Positions 1-9,705 of a DNA stretch of 11,201 bases are shown piece by piece. The notes beneath the pieces were generated by a model that was not told the DNA's origin, did no database searches, and worked only from the letters and a program-made list of their open reading frames with translations. The DNA lies in IMG/VR virus record IMGVR_UViG_2654587569_000008. The stretch is one strand, 5' to 3'. The position numbers and the translations under genes are program-made. Source of the stretch: a virus (Duplodnaviria; Heunggongvirae; Uroviricota; Caudoviricetes). The stretch's first letter is position 1; each line of letters opens with the position of its first letter.

Positions 1-1242
1 ATGGCACGAAAAACCACCCCACTAACCATTACGGAGATCAAAAACGCACGACCAGGGGAAAAGGAATACACCCTGCAAGATGGCGGAGGATTATTTCTTC
101 TGGTGAAGCCCTCCGGATCAAAAATATGGCGTTTTACGTACTACCGCCCGGCAGATAAAAAACGGACTATTATCAGCCTTGGATCGCTGAATGATGTTTC
201 CCTGTCTGATGCCAGAGAGCGACGGAATGAATACAGGTCACTAATAGCAAAGGGAACTGACCCACAGGACCATGAACGCCGGAAACGTGAAGCAGAGAGC
301 CGGAAAAAGGGCAACACGTTCGAAAAAGTTGCCTCGGACTGGTACGAGATGAAAAAAGGCCAGAATCTGGCTTACAACACGATTAAGGATATCTGGCGAT
401 CCCTGGAAAAATACGTATTCCCGTACATCGGAAACACGCCAATAGATACCCTCACCGCTCGCCGCTTTGTTGAGATACTCACACCCATTAAAGCACGCGG
501 CAACCTGGAAACTCTGAAACGCGTTTTACAACGCATCAATGAAGTGATGGATTTTGCTGCCAACAGTGGGCTGATTGACATCAACACCGCCGCGAACGTC
601 CGCAAGGCATTCCCTTCCCCCACTAAAAAGCATATGCCAACCATCCGACCGGAACAGCTACCGCAGCTAATGCACGATTTATCGGTCGCCAGCATAGAAC
701 GGCAAACCAGATTGCTAATCGAGTGGCAACTGCTGACCGTAGCACGCCCAGCCGAAGCAGCCGCCGCACGCTGGGAAGAAATAGATCTCGATGCCGAAAC
801 ATGGACGATTCCAGCCGGACGCATGAAGATGCGCCGTGACCATGTGATCCCCCTTTGCGGTCAGGCTATGGCTGTACTGGAAACCATGAAGCCAATCAGC
901 GCACACAGGGAACACGTTTTTCCCAGCCTTAAAAACCCGATGCTGCCAATGAGCAGCCAGACCGCTAACGCCGCATTGCGCCGGATGGGTTACGCTGGTG
1001 TGCTGGTGTCTCACGGATTACGCGCCATATTCAGCACAGCAGCGAACGAGGAAGGATTCGAGCCGGACGTAATCGAGGCCGCGCTCGCACACGTGGACAC
1101 GAACGAGGTAAGGCGAGCATATAACCGAAGTAACTACCTGGAAAAGCGCGTGGTGCTTATGCGCTGGTGGGGGGAATTTGTAGAGGCCGCAGCAACTGGA
1201 GTGACCATAGCCAGTGGTAAAAGGGGTATCCGTGCCGTGTAA
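1..1242 (+). CDS. int: Tyrosine recombinase/integrase, P4 / CP4-57 (IntA-like) family
   Basis: 413-aa ORF. N-terminal MARKT.PLT..EIK...YTL.DG.GL.L..K.SGSK.W.F.YYRP and C-terminal catalytic region (HVIPL...VSHGLRAI...R..YNRS.YL..R..LM..W) match the P4-type integrase family as recalled. Window starts on its ATG, so attL and the target tRNA/tmRNA would lie upstream, outside the window. Confidence 0.9.
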   Translation: MARKTTPLTITEIKNARPGEKEYTLQDGGGLFLLVKPSGSKIWRFTYYRPADKKRTIISLGSLNDVSLSDARERRNEYRSLIAKGTDPQDHERRKREAESRKKGNTFEKVASDWYEMKKGQNLAYNTIKDIWRSLEKYVFPYIGNTPIDTLTARRFVEILTPIKARGNLETLKRVLQRINEVMDFAANSGLIDINTAANVRKAFPSPTKKHMPTIRPEQLPQLMHDLSVASIERQTRLLIEWQLLTVARPAEAAAARWEEIDLDAETWTIPAGRMKMRRDHVIPLCGQAMAVLETMKPISAHREHVFPSLKNPMLPMSSQTANAALRRMGYAGVLVSHGLRAIFSTAANEEGFEPDVIEAALAHVDTNEVRRAYNRSNYLEKRVVLMRWWGEFVEAAATGVTIASGKRGIRAV

Positions 1243-1948: not shown

Positions 1949-2097
1949 TGGTGTGAGGCGTAACGCGATGAACATAACAAAAAGCGCCCCGTTACCGGAG
2001 CGCCCTTGCGAACAATTAACCTGCTGCGAAAAAAATGGATCAGTGCAGGGGAATTATATCAACCGTGTGGCGAAGCGCCACAATTGCCGGATAACAG

Positions 2098-2127
2098 GCA
2101 AAACAAAGGCCACCCGCTACGGTGGCC
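2098..2127 (-). terminator. Rho-independent terminator for the minus-strand two-gene unit
   Basis: Perfect 7-bp GC-rich stem GGCCACC-(CGCTAC)-GGTGGCC; on the minus strand it is followed by TTTGTTTT. Lies about 80 nt beyond the stop at 2207. Confidence 0.6.
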
Positions 2128-2206
2128 CCTCGACACAAGCTACACGTTATCCCCAACGCATGAGCATCACCAACAATGCCACATTTGCGGCTGGTGGGCA
2201 ATGTGA

Positions 2207-2380
2207 TCAGTCAGATTTGGTTCGTTCCAAGGTTTGCAACGAGAGCTTTTTCCTGTGCTCTTTAAGGAATTTCTCAAGAGCAAACGAACAAGGTGCGAAT
2301 CTTTCTGATTCATGTTCTATCTTTCTGCGCCGTCTTTTCCGTGCCGGTGATAATGTTTTGGTCAATTCTTTATCGGTCAT
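2207..2380 (-). CDS. Hypothetical small highly basic protein (57 aa; alternative start at 2395)
   Basis: Second gene of the minus-strand unit. AGGA about 9 nt upstream of the ATG at 2380. Arg/Lys-rich (ARKRRRRK); no recognisable family. Confidence 0.4.
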   Translation of the reverse strand: MTDKELTKTLSPARKRRRRKIEHESERFAPCSFALEKFLKEHRKKLSLQTLERTKSD

Positions 2381-2437
2381 TGTGTTGTCCTGCATAGCAA
2401 TGCGCCGTAGTTACTCACACCACGGCGCTGGTGATGG

Positions 2438-2617
2438 TTACTCCTGCTCTTTGGCCTTGCGCCGCTGGCGGCGTTTGATCTCGCCTTGCATTGACGTAAT
2501 GATGAATTGTGATGTGCTTTCGCCTGATTCTTTCACTGATTCCATGGCGTTTACTATTTCGTGTGGTACACGAGCCTTTAGAGCTTGTGATTTTGCGTTT
2601 GTTGTACCCGTTGCCAT
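2438..2617 (-). CDS. Small putative DNA-binding regulator (ribbon-helix-helix-like pattern), candidate island repressor
   Basis: 59-aa ORF starting at an internal ATG of the listed 2438..2791 frame, with GAGGAA 7 nt upstream. KSQALKARVPHEIVNAMESVKESGESTSQFIITSM resembles the strand-helix-helix layout of CopG/Arc proteins. Divergent from the early operon with operators in between. Function is inferred, not demonstrated. Confidence 0.45.
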   Translation of the reverse strand: MATGTTNAKSQALKARVPHEIVNAMESVKESGESTSQFIITSMQGEIKRRQRRKAKEQE

Positions 2618-2678
2618 TTCTATTCCTCTGGTGGATTGGTGGGGGACAGTATACACAGAAAAAGCACAAATAAAACTC

Positions 2679-2724
2679 TTGACGTGGGCCACACCTAAAA
2701 CATATAGTGGGCCACACCTTAAAA
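2679..2724 (+). promoter_or_regulatory. Sigma70-like early promoter overlapped by two direct-repeat palindromic operators
   Basis: TTGACG (2679-2684), 18-nt spacer, TATAGT (2703-2708). Two copies of GTGGGCCACACCT(T)AAAA at 2684-2700 and 2707-2724, 23 bp apart, one between -35 and -10 and one over the start region. Core GTGG-G-CCAC is itself a palindrome. Confidence 0.45.
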
Positions 2725-2816
2725 TTATCAAGGCGCATAAATGCAAAGCCCCGCAAGTGTCGTTACCACTCGCAGGGCTTCTAACCACCAACGATAGCAG
2801 AAGTATCGAGGTAGCT

Positions 2817-3023
2817 ATGAGAAATTATACCAGACACCCGCAAGGGCGGGACTCGCACAACCTGAATAAATACATCTGGCGTTTTATCGCCCTGAGCACG
2901 GCACAACCGCGCGTGATTACCATTGAGGCCACCAGCGAACAGGAAGCACGCCAGCAATCTCCTGATGGCTGCGTGATGGTATTCGCCGCCCGTATTCGTC
3001 AGGAGGTGCGCCATGTGCAATAA
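2817..3023 (+). CDS. Hypothetical protein (68 aa), possible first gene of the early operon
   Basis: ATG with GAGGT 5-6 nt upstream; its stop overlaps the next gene's start. It is the 3' part of a long, otherwise implausible plus-strand ORF, so confidence is low. Confidence 0.3.
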   Translation: MRNYTRHPQGRDSHNLNKYIWRFIALSTAQPRVITIEATSEQEARQQSPDGCVMVFAARIRQEVRHVQ

Positions 3024-3703: not shown

Positions 3704-4003
3704 ATGAAACAGAAAAATTCTGGCTTTACTGCCAGCGGCCTCTCTCGGCCTGAAATCCGCCCCGGCGATATTTTCAAAGATAAATACGGCGGCACTGTAA
3801 CGATTAAAAGCGTGGTGGGACGGTGTGTTACTTACCGCCGTGATGGGTACGGCTATGACTGCGTGATGCCTGTTTATCAGTTCCGGCGTGATTTTTCTCT
3901 GGTACAGAACGCAACACGCGGTAAGCCCACCAGCAGGGAAAAAGCACGGGAAAATATTAAGAAAATAAAAAGCATGCTCAGCGCATCCAGAGGTAAAAAA
4001 TGA
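3704..4003 (+). CDS. Hypothetical protein (99 aa), basic C-terminus
   Basis: GGAGAA upstream of the ATG; its stop overlaps the repA start (ATGA at 4000-4003). Confidence 0.55.
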   Translation: MKQKNSGFTASGLSRPEIRPGDIFKDKYGGTVTIKSVVGRCVTYRRDGYGYDCVMPVYQFRRDFSLVQNATRGKPTSREKARENIKKIKSMLSASRGKK

Positions 4004-5406
4004 AACTGGCACCGAACGTAAAACTGTTACCGAAAGATAAACACACTGAGGCGGTTATTTTTGCGGGTGATAATGCTCACTCCTTTGCAGAACATTACAT
4101 GATTGCACAGGCCAAAAAAGCAGGCGATCCCATCCCTCCGGTTTACCTGGGCCGTTATCAGTTAAGCGAACTGGACAATTTACAGATTGTTGATGAAGGA
4201 CGATACAGAGCAAAGGTCATACGCGCCGGAAACCTGGACGATATGCAGATGCTGACCATTGCCACCAAATTGGCGATCGCAGGTGTCCGGGAAGCGCGGT
4301 TACTTTCAGAGAATTTCGAACTACTGGAGGACTGGAGCGAGCAACTACCGCGGCTTAAAGAAACCTGGGAACGCGGGGAAAGTCTGGTCATGAATGGTGG
4401 AAAGCGAAAAATCACACTTCCCATCTCATGGGGTTCTGAGGGATTCGACGCGCAGCAAAGCTACGTAATTAAGGGGCTTATTCCGGCTGAATCATTATGC
4501 AGCACCTACGGGGCCAGCGGTTCTTATAAATCGTTCCTGGCTATTTCCTGGTCGTGTCATGTTGCCACAGGTATAGCATGGGGAGGCCGCAGGGTAAGTA
4601 AGGGCGCGGTTATTTATATCGCTGGCGAAGGCAGCATGGGCGTAAAACGCCGCGTTAAGGCGTGGGAGATAACCCACGACAAGGTGGTTACAGATTTGTG
4701 CATCATTAACGCGCCTGTTTTCCCTGCATCGCCTGACTATGTGGAGCAGGTTATCAGAACTGCCGGACTTGTTAAGAGCAGAACGGGCGAAAATGTGCGG
4801 CTGATTGTGATAGACACGCTGGCCCGTTGCTTTGGTGGGAATGATGAAAATGATTCCCGTGATATGGGCGCATTTATCCAGGGGTGTGACGCGATAAAGC
4901 AGGCCACAGGGGCCACGGTGCTGGTGGTTCACCATTCCGGCAAGGATGAAACAAAGGGGGCGCGTGGTTCCAGCGCATTCCGTGCCGCACTGGATGCAGA
5001 GTACCGAATCAGCCGGGAAAATTCAGACGTTACAGCACTGGTGGCGGCGTGTACGAAGATGAAGGACGCAGAGGAGCCAAAAGAAAGCGCATACGACCTT
5101 AAAAGCGTGGAGGTGTTTACCGATACAGATGGCGAAGAGATTGTGTCCATGGTGGTGATTGACGTTCCCCGCGCCCCTGCTGAACTGGAACGCATCGAGG
5201 AGGCCGGGAACAAGACGGAAAATCACACGGCTTTATGGGGTTGTATCCGATCACGTATACAGCATGGTGATAAATGCACGATCCCGCTGCTACGTGACGA
5301 CATGAAAAAGCTGGGATATGACACAAAACACCTTAAACGATGGTTAGCAAAACTGGAAAAAGACGGCGTGATTTGCGTCGATGGGGATGATGTTCACCCA
5401 CTGTAA
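4000..5406 (+). CDS. Replication initiator/helicase, RepA-like RecA-fold ATPase (AAA_25-like)
   Basis: 468 aa. Walker A-like GASGSYKS, Walker B-like LIVIDTLARCF, a VLVVHHSGKDE motif, and a basic C-terminal tail that could be a DNA-binding domain. No primase domain recognised. Followed immediately by an iteron array. Confidence 0.85.
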   Translation: MKLAPNVKLLPKDKHTEAVIFAGDNAHSFAEHYMIAQAKKAGDPIPPVYLGRYQLSELDNLQIVDEGRYRAKVIRAGNLDDMQMLTIATKLAIAGVREARLLSENFELLEDWSEQLPRLKETWERGESLVMNGGKRKITLPISWGSEGFDAQQSYVIKGLIPAESLCSTYGASGSYKSFLAISWSCHVATGIAWGGRRVSKGAVIYIAGEGSMGVKRRVKAWEITHDKVVTDLCIINAPVFPASPDYVEQVIRTAGLVKSRTGENVRLIVIDTLARCFGGNDENDSRDMGAFIQGCDAIKQATGATVLVVHHSGKDETKGARGSSAFRAALDAEYRISRENSDVTALVAACTKMKDAEEPKESAYDLKSVEVFTDTDGEEIVSMVVIDVPRAPAELERIEEAGNKTENHTALWGCIRSRIQHGDKCTIPLLRDDMKKLGYDTKHLKRWLAKLEKDGVICVDGDDVHPL

Positions 5407-5610
5407 AAAGTGGGCGTTAAAAGTGGGAATAGTGGGTAATTTAACCGAAATTTAACAAAATCGCCCACTTTCCCACGTGTATACATCCAAAAAAGTGGGC
5501 ACTAAAAAAATACTTATGAAACAGTACGATATAAAACCACAAAATCCCAGGTGGGACGAAGTGGGAAACCATGAAAAGTGGGCAGAAAAAGTGGGCACAG
5601 GTGGGCGCAT
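5404..5610. repeat. Iteron array, putative origin of replication
   Basis: Eleven copies of the GTGGG core within about 200 bp, mostly as AAAAGTGGGC(A): nine direct (5410, 5423, 5432, 5495, 5551, 5561, 5578, 5591, 5601) and two inverted CCCAC (5464, 5472), with A-rich spacers. Directly downstream of repA. Confidence 0.6.
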
Positions 5611-5860
5611 GACAAGAAAAACCAGAGATAAGACAGCACCAAAATATAAAGCGTTAGACATGACAGAGCACGCCTTAAAGGTGGCAATCAGAACGATAGA
5701 CCGCCACGCCGGGGAAGGATACGCGAAAGCACATCCCGAACTGATAAGCGCATTCATGACCACGACGGCGGCAAATTTTGCCACGCTGACAGAGCGGGAG
5801 ATTGCCGAAGCGGAACAGGTAACAACAATCAACGTTAAAACCGGAGAGGTGGAATCATGA
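5609..5860 (+). CDS. Hypothetical protein (83 aa from the ATG at 5609; ORF open from 5477)
   Basis: AGGTGG just upstream of the ATG at 5609; the longer version would be translated across the iterons. Stop overlaps the ssb start (ATGA). Confidence 0.4.
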   Translation: MTRKTRDKTAPKYKALDMTEHALKVAIRTIDRHAGEGYAKAHPELISAFMTTTAANFATLTEREIAEAEQVTTINVKTGEVES

Positions 5861-6279
5861 CAGCACAGATAGCGGCTTACGGGCGGCTGGTGGCTGACCC
5901 GCAGTTAAAGACCACCAGCAAAGGGACACAAATGGCGATGGCGAGTATGGCAGTTCCCCTGCCGTGCAGCCAGGCAGATGACGGAACGGCGACGATGTGG
6001 TTATCTGTCCGGGCGTTTGGCAGACAGGCCGACGCACTGGCAAAACACCACAAAGGCGAACTCCTGAGCGTGGCGGGTAACATGCAGGTGAGCCAGTGGA
6101 CAGGCCAGAACGGCGAAACGCGGCAGGGCTGGCAGGTTATCGCAGACAGTGTAATCAGTGCCAGAACGGCGCGACCGGGCGGCAAAAAAGGTCAACAGGG
6201 GCAGGCTACTGACGCACTGAACAGGGCAAAACAACAGGCGGGAAATGATGATCCGTACGGGGATAACATACCGTTTTAA
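5857..6279 (+). CDS. ssb: Single-stranded DNA-binding protein (SSB)
   Basis: 140 aa. OB-fold region aligns by eye with E. coli SSB (GRLVADPQL..., W..V..FG..A......KG......G.....W....G), and the C-terminus ends DDPYGDNIPF, matching the SSB acidic tip D-D-D-I-P-F. GGAGAGGTGG RBS. Confidence 0.8.
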   Translation: MTAQIAAYGRLVADPQLKTTSKGTQMAMASMAVPLPCSQADDGTATMWLSVRAFGRQADALAKHHKGELLSVAGNMQVSQWTGQNGETRQGWQVIADSVISARTARPGGKKGQQGQATDALNRAKQQAGNDDPYGDNIPF

Positions 6280-6552: not shown

Positions 6553-7593
6553 ATGAGTGATTTATATTCGCCAGCCATGTTAATACAGGTTGTTAATGCC
6601 GAAGATATTCAATGGCAGATTAATTCTTTATTTATAAACCTGTTTTTTAAGCGAGTCGTTACATTTGAGACGCGGGATATTGCGCTTGATATTATTGACG
6701 ATCCAGACATCCCGATGGCTGCATTTTGTTCCCCTATGGTTGGTAGTAAAGTCTCACGCGATGAAGGCTACGAATCAAAAGTAATTCGCCCTGGCTATAT
6801 GAAGCCAAAAAGTAGTATCGACCCAAATAAAATAGCCGTTCGTCAACCAGGCGTATCACCTGAACAATTCAATGCATATTCATCACGCAGTTTCAAAATA
6901 AAGCGAGCGTTAGTAAGACAAGCGCAGGCAATTCGTGCGCGTATTGAGTGGCTTGCTGTTCAGGCGGTTACAACGGGGAAAAATATCATTGAAGGCGATG
7001 GAATTGAACGTTATGAACTGGACTGGAATATAAAACCACAAAATATTATCACGCAGTCCGGCGGCACGGAGTGGAGCGGTAGAGATTTATCAACATTTGA
7101 TCCAAACGATGACATCGAAGAGTACGCAGAAATCAGCGAAGGTACTACAAATATCATCGTAATGGGCCGCAACGTATGGAAAAAATACCGCGCCTTTAAA
7201 GCAGTAAAAGATTGCCTTGATACTCGACGGGGATCTAATTCCGTTCTTGAAACGGCCCTGAAAAATCTTGGGGATTCTGTAAGCTTCAAGGGTTACGTTG
7301 GCGATGTTGCTATTGTGGTATATAGCGGACGTTATACCGACGAGGACGGCAAAGAAAAATATTTCCTTGATCCTGATTTGATGGTGCTTGGCAACACATC
7401 ATTACAGGGCATCGTTGCCTACGGTGGCATTCAGGATCCTGAGTTAATCAGAATGGGGCTGACTAAAGCCGAACTTGCGCCGAAAAATTACATCGTACCA
7501 GGTGATCCGGCTATTGAATATGTGCAGACGCACAGCGCACCGCAACCAATACCGGCCCGCATCAATCGTTTTGTTACCGTTCGCATTGGTTAA
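6553..7593 (+). CDS. Major capsid protein, phage lambda gpE family
   Basis: 346 aa (lambda gpE is 341). Long blocks match gpE as recalled: NIITQSGGTEWS, KAVKDCLDTRRGSNSVLETA, GDVAIVVYSGRY, MVLGNT, PGYMKPK, PKNYIVPGDPA. AAGAGG RBS. Confidence 0.9.
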   Translation: MSDLYSPAMLIQVVNAEDIQWQINSLFINLFFKRVVTFETRDIALDIIDDPDIPMAAFCSPMVGSKVSRDEGYESKVIRPGYMKPKSSIDPNKIAVRQPGVSPEQFNAYSSRSFKIKRALVRQAQAIRARIEWLAVQAVTTGKNIIEGDGIERYELDWNIKPQNIITQSGGTEWSGRDLSTFDPNDDIEEYAEISEGTTNIIVMGRNVWKKYRAFKAVKDCLDTRRGSNSVLETALKNLGDSVSFKGYVGDVAIVVYSGRYTDEDGKEKYFLDPDLMVLGNTSLQGIVAYGGIQDPELIRMGLTKAELAPKNYIVPGDPAIEYVQTHSAPQPIPARINRFVTVRIG

Positions 7594-7602
7594 GGGGGAG
7601 CA

Positions 7603-7944
7603 ATGGCTACTCATTACACTGAACTCATGGCTGGCACTGAAGCACTGGTTACTACGTTGGGGATATTTTCAGCTAATAAAGGGGTAATTCCTGCATTTAC
7701 GCCACTGATGCAAGAAGATGCAACTGGTGCACTGGTGGTATGGGATGGAACGAGCGCAGGCAAAGCTGTTTATGTTTCCGCTGTACAAATCGATACAGCG
7801 ACAAAAACGCAGGCTCAGGTTTATAAAACCGGCGTCTTAAATGTTGATGCTCTGAACTGGCCTGAGTCTGTAACACAACTATCAGCAAAAGTTGCTGCGT
7901 TTGTTGGCTCAGGTATTTCTGTTCAGCCGCTGGCACGTGTGTGA
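7603..7944 (+). CDS. Head decoration protein, phage lambda gpD family
   Basis: 113 aa (gpD is 110). TPLMQEDATGALVVWDGTSAGKAV against gpD [24 protein letters not shown], and VYKTGVLNVDALNWPES against FYKSGTFRYEDVLWPEA. AAGGGGGAG RBS. Gene order is E then D, the reverse of lambda. Confidence 0.8.
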   Translation: MATHYTELMAGTEALVTTLGIFSANKGVIPAFTPLMQEDATGALVVWDGTSAGKAVYVSAVQIDTATKTQAQVYKTGVLNVDALNWPESVTQLSAKVAAFVGSGISVQPLARV

Positions 7945-7953
7945 GGTACGAGA

Positions 7954-8298
7954 ATGATTGAAAGAGATAGTCAGCTACGAGAGCTATTAGATATCGATGA
8001 CAAAATGAGTTTAAGCGAGCGCCTTGTTGATATGGATCAGGTAGTGGAGCTTACAACCCTTAGCCGTCGCACATTGCTAAACCTTGAGGCTCGCGGAGAG
8101 TTCCCCGAACGCGTACAGGTTACGAAAGGGCGCAAGGCATGGTATTTAAGCGAGGTTGTTGCGTGGATTAACAACATTCCGCGCGCATCAAATTATTGCC
8201 TTGTTCCCACCCCCGAAAAACCTGATGCGGCGTTATGCCTCAAGATTGAACGCGCCAGGCGTAATGCCCTGAAAGGACGCAATAAGTTGATTGGTTGA
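7954..8298 (+). CDS. Second AlpA-family HTH protein inside the late module
   Basis: 114 aa. VVELTTLSRRTLLNLEARGEFPERVQVTKGRKAWYLSEVVAWINN fits the AlpA/excisionase-type HTH. GAGG RBS. Confidence 0.7.
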   Translation: MIERDSQLRELLDIDDKMSLSERLVDMDQVVELTTLSRRTLLNLEARGEFPERVQVTKGRKAWYLSEVVAWINNIPRASNYCLVPTPEKPDAALCLKIERARRNALKGRNKLIG

Positions 8299-8319: not shown

Positions 8320-8400
8320 CTGGCGGGTCCTTTCCGGCGATCCGGCAGGCTACGGGGCGGCGACCTTGCGTATTTTCGCTATTTATGAGCCTTTTCGGGT
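8320..8400. other. Lambda-like cos site (cosQ, cosN, I2-like segment)
   Basis: GGGTCCTTTCCGGCGATCCGGCAGGCTACGGGGCGGCGACCTTGCGTATTTTCGCTATTTATGAGCCTTTTCGGG is nearly identical to the lambda/cosmid cos sequence as recalled. The 12-nt cohesive-end sequence GGGCGGCGACCT is at 8355-8366. Confidence 0.8.
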
Positions 8401-8499
8401 TGGTGGTGGTGGTTTTGTTTTTCGCTCTATCTCTATGAATAAAAAGGGAAAGATAACACCAACACACCAACCTGAAACCTTAACTAAGTGGGGATATTG

Positions 8500-9042
8500 A
8501 TGAAATCGCACCTGATGAACAAAAAAACTATGGCGCAAAGCTGCCGCGTAAGTGCGACAGCGTTCGACAAGTGGGGAGTAACTCCCGTTGAGCGTAAAGG
8601 CCGTGAGGCGTTTTATGATGTTGCTAGCGTGATAGACAATAGGGTTAACAATGCAATTAACCAGCTTACAAACGACAAAGGCGAGATTGATGATGATGAA
8701 CTTTTACGCGTAAGAATCAGATTAATGACGGCCCAGGCGGAAGCGCAGGAACTTAAAAACGAGCGCGAACGCGGCGAGGTGATTGATACAAAGTTTTGCA
8801 TCTACGCGATTTCAAAACTAGCGAGTCAGATTTCATCAATCATGGACAGCCTCCCGCTCACAATGCAAAGGCGCTTTCCCGATATAAGGCCGTATATGCT
8901 GGATGAACTAAAAAGGGAAATAGCCAAAGCATGTAACGCATGTGCAAGACTTGACGAAAACCTGCCACAGATACTGGCTGATTACCTGATGGAAACTACC
9001 GGAAACGCGCCTGAGAAGTTGCTACAGAACAAAGGCGAGTAA
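8500..9042 (+). CDS. Terminase small subunit, lambda Nu1 family
   Basis: About 180 aa from the ATG at 8500 (ORF listed from the GTG at 8488). C-terminal two-thirds align by eye with Nu1 (RLMTAQAEAQELKNERERGEVIDTKFCIYAISKLASQISSIMDSLPLTMQRRFPDI against Nu1 RLTRAQADAQELKNARDSAEVVETAFCTFVLSRIAGEIASILDGLPLSVQRRFPEL). N-terminal DNA-binding region is related but more diverged. About 135 bp downstream of cosN, as in lambda. Confidence 0.85.
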   Translation: MKSHLMNKKTMAQSCRVSATAFDKWGVTPVERKGREAFYDVASVIDNRVNNAINQLTNDKGEIDDDELLRVRIRLMTAQAEAQELKNERERGEVIDTKFCIYAISKLASQISSIMDSLPLTMQRRFPDIRPYMLDELKREIAKACNACARLDENLPQILADYLMETTGNAPEKLLQNKGE

Positions 9043-9115: not shown

Positions 9116-9397
9116 ATGACTGAAGCCGAACTACTGGGATTAATCCGCCGCGTCGTCGGAATCAGCCAGCAGCATGACGAACAGGCCACACAGCCGGACA
9201 GCGTGACCGCTGAAAATTATGTGCGTGTTGTTGCTGAGGTGATGCGCCGTGATGGTATTGAGCTTAACGGCGTGGATATGCGCAACATACGAACAAGAGT
9301 CCTTGAGTTGCTGGCATACCGTCGCCGTTCTCAACAACGGAGGGAGAGCGCGAAAAATACTTACCAGTGGAAGAAGCCGGAACGGTTGCGGCGGTAG
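9116..9397 (+). CDS. Hypothetical protein (93 aa)
   Basis: GAGGG 5 nt upstream of the ATG. Last gene of the late module; no recognisable family. Confidence 0.45.
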   Translation: MTEAELLGLIRRVVGISQQHDEQATQPDSVTAENYVRVVAEVMRRDGIELNGVDMRNIRTRVLELLAYRRRSQQRRESAKNTYQWKKPERLRR

Positions 9398-9534: not shown

Positions 9535-9705
9535 TAACTGACTGATATTTTCGGGAACAGCCAACGGCTGAGGCCGGAACAACCGACTATCTTTCAGATA
9601 GTCACAAACTACGAAATTTTCGCAGTTTAATTACTCGCCAGCTTAATCGCTAACCCACTGATATTTTCGGAAACCTCGATTTGAGGAGACCGGAACGTCT
9701 ACATA
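9535..9705. repeat. Two imperfect ~50-bp direct repeats with a structure-preserving variable hairpin
   Basis: Copy 1 at 9535-9590 and copy 2 at 9651-9705 share ACTGATATTTTCGG(G/A)AAC and AG(G/A)CCGGAAC. The segment between them differs in sequence but forms a hairpin in both (CAGCC-AAC-GGCTG against CCTC-GATTT-GAGG). Confidence 0.4.

Follow-up and report, generated by a model that had tools for sequence, protein, structure and literature searches.

A lambda-like cosN beside a putative N15/Monarch-class cosB and a resident small terminase gene in a Gram-negative phage-inducible chromosomal island

This work concerns the cos region of a satellite element carried by a stretch of 11,201 nucleotides (hereinafter, the window) deposited as IMG/VR virus record IMGVR_UViG_2654587569_000008 (Caudoviricetes). 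The element is a Gram-negative phage-inducible chromosomal island (PICI) of the EcCICFT073 type, whose parts are an integrase, a helicase, SSB, a capsid protein similar to lambda E, a decoration protein similar to lambda D, an AlpA regulator and cos. On balance, we consider it probable that the segment 8325-8497 is the functional cos of a PICI parasitising lambda-like cos phages, in which a cosB of the N15/Monarch class would be read by the island's own small terminase subunit (TerS) and the large subunit (TerL) would be recruited from the helper.

The lambda terminase is the textbook model for the selection by a virus of its own DNA and, to our knowledge, the Rpp proteins represent so far the sole explained subversion of a lambda-type terminase by Gram-negative satellites. 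If the idea proposed here is correct, the island would embody a second, Rpp-independent way of reprogramming this enzyme, as well as a case in nature of packaging specificity being exchanged in one piece. According to BLAST, 759 out of 5426 complete E. coli genomes, or roughly one seventh of them, carry this module (the whole cos plus cosB), and O157:H7 and neonatal-meningitis strains are among the carriers. Part of this picture was already known: the cos of the satellite EcCICFT073 combines a foreign cosB with cosQ/cosN of the helper type, the island family was reported as TerS-encoding in 2018, and the N15/Monarch R sequences had been described. As far as the literature searched is concerned, four points appear to be new: in a widespread island, a cosB of the N15/Monarch class is accompanied by a full-length TerS of the island itself, replacing Rpp; cosB and the DNA-binding domain (DBD) of TerS form a single mobile cassette, joined to a TerS body that is specific to satellites; the island can be found embedded in lambda-cosB prophages; and the cosN alleles vary independently of cosB. 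No paper on the cosB or the TerS of this island type was found in the literature searched, which did not cover subscription journals.

Anatomy of the cos region

The window was aligned with lambda without gaps, using the cohesive end as anchor (8355 corresponding to lambda bp 1). A preliminary description, made from the letters of the window, had placed the cohesive end GGGCGGCGACCT at 8355-8366 and two repeats, GGTTGGTGGTGGTGG and CACCAACACACCAACC, at 8398-8412 and 8457-8472, respectively; all these coordinates and strings turned out to be exact. It had also depicted the left part as near-identical to lambda cos, which holds in substance but is slightly generous, the identity over 8325-8396 being 63/72 (88%), with 27/30 matches from cosQ to the nick, 12/12 in the cohesive end and 24/30 at bp 13-42. 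As in a lambda-type cos, a cosQ heptamer stands about 30 bp 5' of the nick, and the cosN that accompanies it measures 22 bp and has a cohesive end of 12 nt. The likeness to lambda does stop at about 8397, as had been suggested: the segment 8397-8474, corresponding to the R3/I1/R2 region of lambda, matches at only 33 out of 78 positions (42%), and none of the lambda R sequences (CGTTTCC..., CGTTTCCnTTCT) was found in the cosB of the window, which is not of the lambda type. The same boundary was recovered by BLAST. The query had matches in 74 phage records and in 4677 of the 5426 complete E. coli genomes; apart from the 759 genomes with the whole region, the matches listed are confined to about 8323-8401.

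The comparative evidence supports the idea that this is a cos whose cosQ/cosN/I2 part is lambdoid, and allelic variants of this part, such as the cohesive end GGGCGTCAGGCG, are common to satellites and true lambda-cosB phages. The cohesive ends also vary among related satellites (L006, L016 and L018, together with the window), where GGGCGGCGACCT, GGGCGTCAGGCG, GGGCGTCAGCGT and AGGCGGCAGCGT occur, and cosQ, the nick-flanking bases and I2 are kept despite these differences; such a diversity suggests that several classes of helper TerL might be involved. We also observed a perfect consensus for the integration host factor (IHF), AATCAACTTATTG, at 8280-8292 on the (-) strand, 33 bp upstream of cosQ and within the 3' end of the alpA-like gene.

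To the right of the boundary, the inverted repeat is real: a repeat search recovered two arms of 13 nt at 8393-8405 and 8465-8477 (92% complementary, 59 nt apart), and the octamer GGTTGGTG has exactly two copies, counting either strand, in the 11.2-kb window, both of them in these arms (about 0.3 expected by chance). The repeats exceed chance because they are conserved across satellites, as revealed by a footprint alignment of nine satellites from Escherichia, Enterobacter and Citrobacter, plus a metagenome. In the R3-like site (8402-8421, bp 48-67) 13 of the 20 columns are invariant, and when the Escherichia copies are compared with the Enterobacter/Citrobacter ones R3 is 85% identical and cosN 82%; the R2-like site (8457-8470) reaches 67%, and the flanks lie at 41-49%, or at 32-49% when taken with the spacer. 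The spacer keeps its length, with 49% identity overall and 66% in the block TATCTCTATGAAT. The R2-like site occupies bp 103-118 (8457-8472), the lambda R2 being located at about bp 108-123. As for the R1-like element, the position is occupied in L007 and L008 by GTTGGTGTATTA, an exact copy of their R2 core GTTGGTGTATT; in the Enterobacter copies of the nine-satellite alignment the element is not present, whereas R3 and R2 stay. In the window it overlaps the ribosome-binding site and the start codon of terS, and by binding to it TerS could repress the translation or the transcription of its own gene.

These sites can be referred to a known packaging class. The R3 of N15 was mapped to bp 48-59, with sequence GAGGTTGTTGTT (Feiss et al. 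2015, PMC4669245), and the Monarch prophages possess the N15 R sequence and helix within a cosB showing the lambda-like order R3, IHF site, inverted R2, R1 (PMC4669245). At the position of the N15 R3 the window has GGTGGTGGTGGT, which matches GAGGTTGTTGTT at 7/12 positions in register and at 9/12 with a 1-bp offset; the same offset is present in L009, an E. coli lambdoid prophage with both TerS and TerL that matches the Monarch description. The sites of L009 are R3 GGTTGTTGTTTT, which the R3 of the window resembles, an inverted R2 GGTTGTTGTGTTT and R1 GGTTGTTGTATTG. Of the Monarch layout, the window shows conserved R3-like and inverted R2-like sites, R1 being weak there and clear in L007 and L008, and its spacer gave no IHF consensus at <=1 mismatch. 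On the basis of these alignments we regard the repeats as probable N15/Monarch-class R sequences with systematic T-to-G differences, not as a new kind of site. The preliminary description was correct in recognising different and, as it proved, conserved repeats at cosB. The T-to-G differences co-occur with a change in the recognition helix of TerS, where A-T (V-T or L-T in relatives) replaces V-Q, and the differences from the phages in R site and helix may reflect a sub-specificity.

The small terminase and the exchange of cosB

In lambda, the C-terminal region of the small subunit Nu1 binds gpA, the large one. The TerS of the island matches Pfam Phage_Nu1 (E 8.6e-24, residues 33-148) and is 37% identical to lambda Nu1 over its full length, the two proteins being collinear also in the region aligned to the gpA-binding tail. 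The protein was then compared with lambda Nu1, the 21-type TerS of CFT073 prophage 4, N15 gp1 and the TerS of prophage L009. Its DBD is 27/45 (60%) identical both to N15 gp1 and to L009, 42% to lambda and 35% to the 21-type, and it shares with the N15-type proteins three deletions with respect to lambda and 21; the recognition helix reads SATAFDKWGV in the window and SVQAFDKWGV in N15-type phages, with AFDKWGV in common. Conservation within the satellite TerS family peaks in the DBD (72-93%) and is lowest in the C-terminal 42 residues (24-71%), a pattern to be expected from a DBD serving the site of the element itself and a tail adapting to the TerLs of different helpers. An intact terS open reading frame (ORF) occurs in hundreds of genomes, and 170 homologues were counted at E <= 0.001, the closest dozens of which are full-length and 80-99% identical.

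A sequence search of TerS against all PDB chains gave no true match, neither to Rpp (RppC) nor to the gpNu1 DBD, so that its relationship was set by the alignment with the lambda, N15 and prophage TerS; with RppA, no BLAST alignment was obtained at E <= 100. A model of the sole DBD (pLDDT 78.9) has the order strand-a1-a2-wing-a3, and its best PDB folds are TerS DBDs, namely 7lwr_A (rmsd 1.9 A), 6hn7_B (TM 0.62, rmsd 2.0 A), which is the lambda TerS chain of the RppC complex, and 1j9i, even though no fold match of this small domain reaches E <= 0.001. Overall, the protein has the features of a Nu1-family TerS, with a predicted N-terminal winged-helix DBD, a helical core and a C-terminal region putatively binding TerL.

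A scan of viral contigs for the cohesive end GGGCGTCAGGCG returned 18 loci. True phages were among them, in which lambda cosB is accompanied by a full lambda Nu1 and, on contigs of sufficient length, by a gpA of 641 aa. Of the satellites, eight combine N15-like cosB with an N15-type DBD, three (L030, L031 and L037) combine lambda cosB with a chimeric TerS, whose first 100 residues are 98% lambda and whose remainder is of the satellite lineage, and two have lambda cosB but lack TerS. Two further lambda-cosB contigs end before a readable terS, one with a phage-type flank (L026) and one with a satellite-type flank (L035). In 11 out of the 11 TerS-bearing satellite loci of the scan, the type of cosB matches that of the DBD. 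A comparison of L030 with L025 shows complete (100%) identity over the decoration gene, alpA, cosQ, cosN and I2 and a fall to about 47% just past I2, L030 having lambda cosB and a 98%-lambda DBD and L025 N15-like cosB and an N15-type DBD. Such an identity followed by a drop indicates that cosB is inherited together with the 5' half of terS in a single cassette, and the left breakpoint of this cassette coincides with the boundary seen against lambda.

The chimeric TerS of L030 (L030:8171-8722) is 98% identical to lambda Nu1 over residues 1-100 and 39% over residues 101-183, the latter resembling the C-terminal half of the Enterobacter satellite TerS. On account of this chimera, the satellite-type C-terminal half appears to be kept whatever the DBD. 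Taken as a whole, the comparative evidence supports the idea that cosB and DBD type, coupled in every locus examined, move as a single cassette with its left edge just after I2. The preliminary description had paired the replaced cosB with a diverged N-terminus of the Nu1-like protein; the coupling is supported, but the domain is of the N15 type and not a diverged lambda one. Its interpretation was largely right, once the attribution to N15/Monarch is introduced, with the recruitment of the helper TerL and the preference over the helper as its putative steps.

Natural pairs, proposed mechanism and rival explanations

A chimeric query, in which the cos-terS of the island was joined to lambda E'-FI-FII-Z, was run against E. 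coli genomes and revealed the satellite within the capsid gene E of a lambdoid prophage in 45 of them. The Enterobacter copies are embedded likewise, and a helper-embedded configuration has been described for other PICIs (PMC10111431). One composite was examined, that of E. coli PKF11 (L021, NZ_CP156706.1): the prophage has lambda's own cos, with R3/I1/R2/R1, and a Nu1 differing from that of lambda at 2 out of 181 residues, and the satellite has N15-like cosB and DBD. Since the prophage carries lambda cosB and Nu1, the specificities of satellite and prophage differ in this natural pair.

The following mechanism can be proposed. The TerL of the helper would nick cosN (8355 and 8366) and terminate at cosQ, because cosQ, cosN and I2 are of the helper's own type and their alleles are common to satellites and living phages. 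The R3 placed at the canonical distance from cosN, the inverted R2 about 59 bp off and the weak R1 would form cosB; a TerS dimer would bind R3 and the inverted R2 via its N15-type winged helix, across the A+T-rich and probably bent spacer, in agreement with the two-site binding proposed for lambda and Monarch. TerS would then position the helper TerL at the island cosN, most likely through its C-terminal half, as the island encodes no TerL to be anchored otherwise. The TerS of a lambda-cosB helper should not recognise the island cosB, given that the lambda terminase does not package N15 DNA (PMC4669245); the helper's small terminase probably cannot select satellite DNA and the satellite's own must do so, which might give the island a preference over the helper. 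This strategy would represent the cos-phage version of the "bring your own TerS" used by the pathogenicity islands of Staphylococcus aureus (SaPIs), rather than the Rpp route of EcCICFT073. It is also possible, although we would stop short of calling it probable, that the TerS of enterobacterial cos-type satellites is modular, in that its satellite-lineage C-terminal half captures the helper TerL without the helper TerS and in competition with it, and cosB plus DBD cassettes (of the N15/Monarch type in the window, of the lambda type in L030) are interchangeable, recombination always joining them to it at the same point, between I2 and R3. The comparative map names candidate sites and residues (R3, R2 and A-T versus V-Q in the helix), composites of the PKF11 type offer a natural helper-satellite pair, the natural cassette swaps are ready-made specificity-exchange experiments, and transducing particles could be engineered with the module as their orthogonal cos/TerS pair.

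Several observations weigh against this mechanism. The R3 and R2 cores are about 70% alike, and a consensus scan of the spacer between them found no IHF site at <=1 mismatch (by eye, the best match has 3 mismatches and the lambda I1 has 2); because of this negative scan, the assignment of the spacer as I1-like relies on its position, its A+T richness and the conserved block. The C-terminal 42 residues of TerS are 43% identical to those of lambda Nu1 in the window and 31% in the PKF11 satellite, and the identity of the tail to any phage in the collection is at most 54%; in a tblastn search against phages, the best matches of the tail (PhiR5_1, lambda) were at 48-55%. The full-length AlphaFold model is of low confidence (pLDDT 56.6) and was not used for the fold search. 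The cohesive end of the PKF11 satellite, GGGCGTCAGGCG, differs at 6/12 positions from the GGGCGGCGACCT of its prophage, which leaves two options: a lambda-type TerL accepts either end, or the helper in packaging is not the prophage in which the satellite is embedded. Moreover, an N15-type terminase can package lambda DNA (PMC4669245), and exclusion of the helper is thus not implied. Lastly, the islands of IHE3034 and 18098, reported in 2018 to "encode TerS", were not mobilised, in the case of IHE3034 by the resident prophages (PMC6092414); the IHE3034 island belongs to the family of the window, the accession of its TerS being the same as in L007, and the failed mobilisation of this relative speaks against a working cos.

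These points have to be considered together with three other explanations. The main one is that the island TerS mixes with the helper TerS, through DBD-DBD contacts or the helical core, the helper giving the TerL-binding tail and the island the recognition of cosB, with a block of helper packaging. This route, similar to that of Rpp, has been demonstrated in the sibling EcCICFT073, which has the same architecture and the Rpp gene in this very slot (PMC6739421); it would also fit the poor conservation of the island TerS tail with respect to the gpA-binding tail of lambda, and the recurrence of the (GGT/ACC)4 motif, read from the opposite strand, at the R3 position of the EcCICFT073 cos1. We judge it unlikely, however, since the island TerS lacks detectable similarity to RppA and is a full-length protein aligned over the whole gpA-binding tail of lambda, which Rpp lacks (PMC9026076). 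Furthermore, its core/oligomerisation half is of the satellite lineage even when combined with a 98%-lambda DBD, which suggests self-assembly and not mixing.

It seems more doubtful still that TerS is mainly a decoy, titrating the helper TerL or poisoning the helper terminase, and that the repeats, especially the R1-like one, are operators for terS autoregulation. The overlap of the R1-like element with the terS ribosome-binding site would suit this idea, satellites commonly block helper packaging (PMC6739421), and lambda-cosB satellites with a chimeric TerS do exist, in which no specificity switch is obvious. Nevertheless, an R3 at the canonical, distance-critical position with respect to cosN and an R2 inverted at lambda-like spacing display the geometry of a packaging complex and not that of an operator (PMC4669245), and it is the R1-like element that is missing from the Enterobacter copies, R3 and R2 being kept. 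As for the idea that the region is an inactive relic, that is, a captured left end (cos plus gene 1) of an N15/Monarch-like phage, non-functional and sitting in a defective island, we consider it very improbable. Besides the IHE3034 relative, unmobilised in the sole published test (PMC6092414), it may invoke the lack of the exact mosaic of the window, at >=80% coverage, from all complete E. coli genomes; but a relic would hardly preserve an intact terS in so many genomes or R3/R2 footprints conserved across genera, the cassette exchange must be recent, as the backbones are otherwise 100% identical, and the cosN alleles match living phage classes.

The island and its relation to known systems

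The hallmarks of Gram-negative PICIs are an integrase, an AlpA-type regulator and a replication module, arranged in one direction over about 10 kb without lysis or tail genes. The gene content of the window (Table 1) conforms to them, in that the Pfam matches are only to integrase, AAA_25, SSB, AlpA, capsid E, decoration D and Nu1. Neither the ORF list nor Pfam gave a TerL-sized terminase in the window, and portal and protease are likewise missing from both. The search for cohesive end and cosN gave one cos site in the window, and a second cos, such as that possessed by EcCICFT073, was looked for there and not found. Related E. coli islands adjoin a tRNA-Pro gene and are placed between yejM and yejO. 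A P4-like or capsid-forming PICI (cf-PICI) was considered as the identity of the element and rejected, TerL, portal and protease being lacking and the EcCIEDL933-type cf-PICIs representing a separate family; the Rpp type was rejected as well, no gene with RppA similarity being present.

Table 1. Coordinates of the genes and of the predicted cos elements in the window and, in the last two lines, of the two cos sites of the PKF11 composite.
Feature	Position	Strand	Remarks
Integrase	1-1242		Pfam
AAA_25 helicase	4000-5406		Pfam
SSB	5857-6279		Pfam
Lambda E-like capsid protein	6553-7593		Pfam
Lambda D-like decoration protein	7603-7944		Pfam
AlpA-like helix-turn-helix regulator	7954-8298	+	Pfam Phage_AlpA; directly upstream of cos; gene order same in relatives
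cosQ heptamer GGGTCCT	8325-8331	+	Nick distance as in lambda (lambda right-end alignment); in all related satellites examined
cosN, 22-bp lambda-defined site	8349-8370	+	Cohesive end GGGCGGCGACCT at 8355-8366; 20/22 versus lambda; sole match in window
I2-like segment TTTTCGCTATTTATGAGCCTTTT	8373-8395	+	Aligns to lambda bp 19-41; core GCGCTATTTATGA kept in satellites; cassette breakpoint just to the right
R3-like TerS site GGTTGGTGGTGGTGGTTTTGTTTT, predicted	8398-8421	+	Core 8404-8418, bp 50-64 from cohesive end
A+T-rich spacer	8422-8456	.	Position of lambda I1; conserved block TATCTCTATGAAT at 8428-8441
R2-like site, inverted, predicted	8457-8477	-	Bottom strand GGTTGGTGTGTTGGTG; core CAAYACACCMAC at 8458-8470; present in all 9 satellites
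Possible R1-like site AAGTGGGGATATTG, weak	8484-8497	+	Overlaps terS ribosome-binding site
terS	8500-9042	+	180-aa full-length Nu1-family small terminase; Pfam Phage_Nu1
TerS domains	residues 1-46		N15-type winged helix-turn-helix DBD; followed by helical core and variable C-terminal region
93-aa ORF	9116-9397		No Pfam match; just 3' of terS
Helper cos, PKF11	L021: ~4940-5130
Satellite cos, PKF11	L021: ~20025-20200

Other features of the window deserve mention. Two further ORFs, of 356 aa (1953-3023) and 127 aa (5477-5860), have no Pfam match, and the replication gene is an AAA_25 (RepA-like) helicase, in place of which close relatives have a D5/primase-type gene. The right end is poor in ORFs between 9535 and 10589 and contains five perfect IHF-consensus matches, a 46-nt direct repeat (at 9535 and 9651) and GTTTGCGGGTTATTT twice exactly (10115 and 10137), with inverted copies of the GTTTGCGGGTTATTT motif between 10035 and 10272; these repeats look like integrase arm sites or an origin.

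The comparison with EcCICFT073, whose sequence was recovered from the CFT073 genome, is the closest one. In that island cosQ and cosN are lambda-like and cosB is not, the latter being recognised by Rpp in a complex with the helper TerS (Fillol-Salom 2018, 2019; Murialdo & Feiss 2022; PMC6092414, PMC6739421, PMC9026076). The two elements share the gene order (E-like capsid, D-like decoration, cos, packaging gene, 93-aa ORF), lambda-like cosQ/cosN/I2 with a non-lambda cosB, and a G/T-rich triplet run, (ACC)4 or (GGT)4, at the R3 position. The slot of the packaging gene, however, harbors in EcCICFT073 rppA, which codes for 144 aa and starts at bp 102, and in the window terS, which codes for 180 aa and starts at bp 146. 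Rpp proteins have 135-153 aa, whereas the TerS of the window is full-length, with an N15-type DBD and without RppA similarity, so that it does not correspond to an Rpp homologue, i.e., a protein of 135-153 aa lying beside cos and devoid of the TerL-binding tail. Similarly, an Rpp-type cosB has been described as R3-only and that of the window has the spacer and the inverted R2; EcCICFT073 has two cos sites and the window one. We also noticed that the 93-aa ORFs, 3' of terS in the window and of rppA in EcCICFT073, are 78% identical, being thus neighbours of either packaging gene. Another observation is that the cos1 of EcCICFT073 shows CACCACCACCAC at the proposed R3-PICI position (L004:2612-2623, bp 54-65), which is the reverse complement of the (GGT)4 run of the window (8401-8412, bp 47-58), at nearly the same distance from cosN and on the opposite strand; an inversion may connect the Rpp-type cosB with that of the window, or else the run of triplets may be of importance on its own.

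With lambda, the window has in common cosQ, cosN (12/12 in the cohesive end) and I2, 88% identical, the positions and orientations of R3 and R2, and a collinear TerS of the same Pfam family. It differs from lambda in lacking the lambda R sequences, the three insertions of the lambda DBD and a good IHF consensus in the spacer, and its cosB is about 45 bp shorter. The pac SaPIs, such as SaPI1 and SaPIbov1, combine, as the island would do, the satellite's own TerS and site with the helper's TerL (PMC6739421); they are different in their headful (pac) packaging, in the unrelated TerS family and in the separate inhibitor Ppi, the window being of the cos type with helper-type cosN/cosQ kept.

The resemblance to N15 and Monarch involves the DBD (60% identity, with identical indels and AFDKWGV), an R3-like site at bp ~48-60 with a GGTkGTkGTT core, and, with L009 as the Monarch representative, the layout R3, A+T-rich spacer, inverted R2 and (R1). 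The R cores are GGTGGTGG or GTTGGTGT in the window and GGTTGTTGT in N15/Monarch, and the recognition helix has A-T (A19-T20) in place of the V-Q of the phages. Finally, unlike these phages, the window has no adjacent TerL, the C-terminal half of its TerS is of the satellite lineage, and the carrier is a 10-kb island and not a phage.

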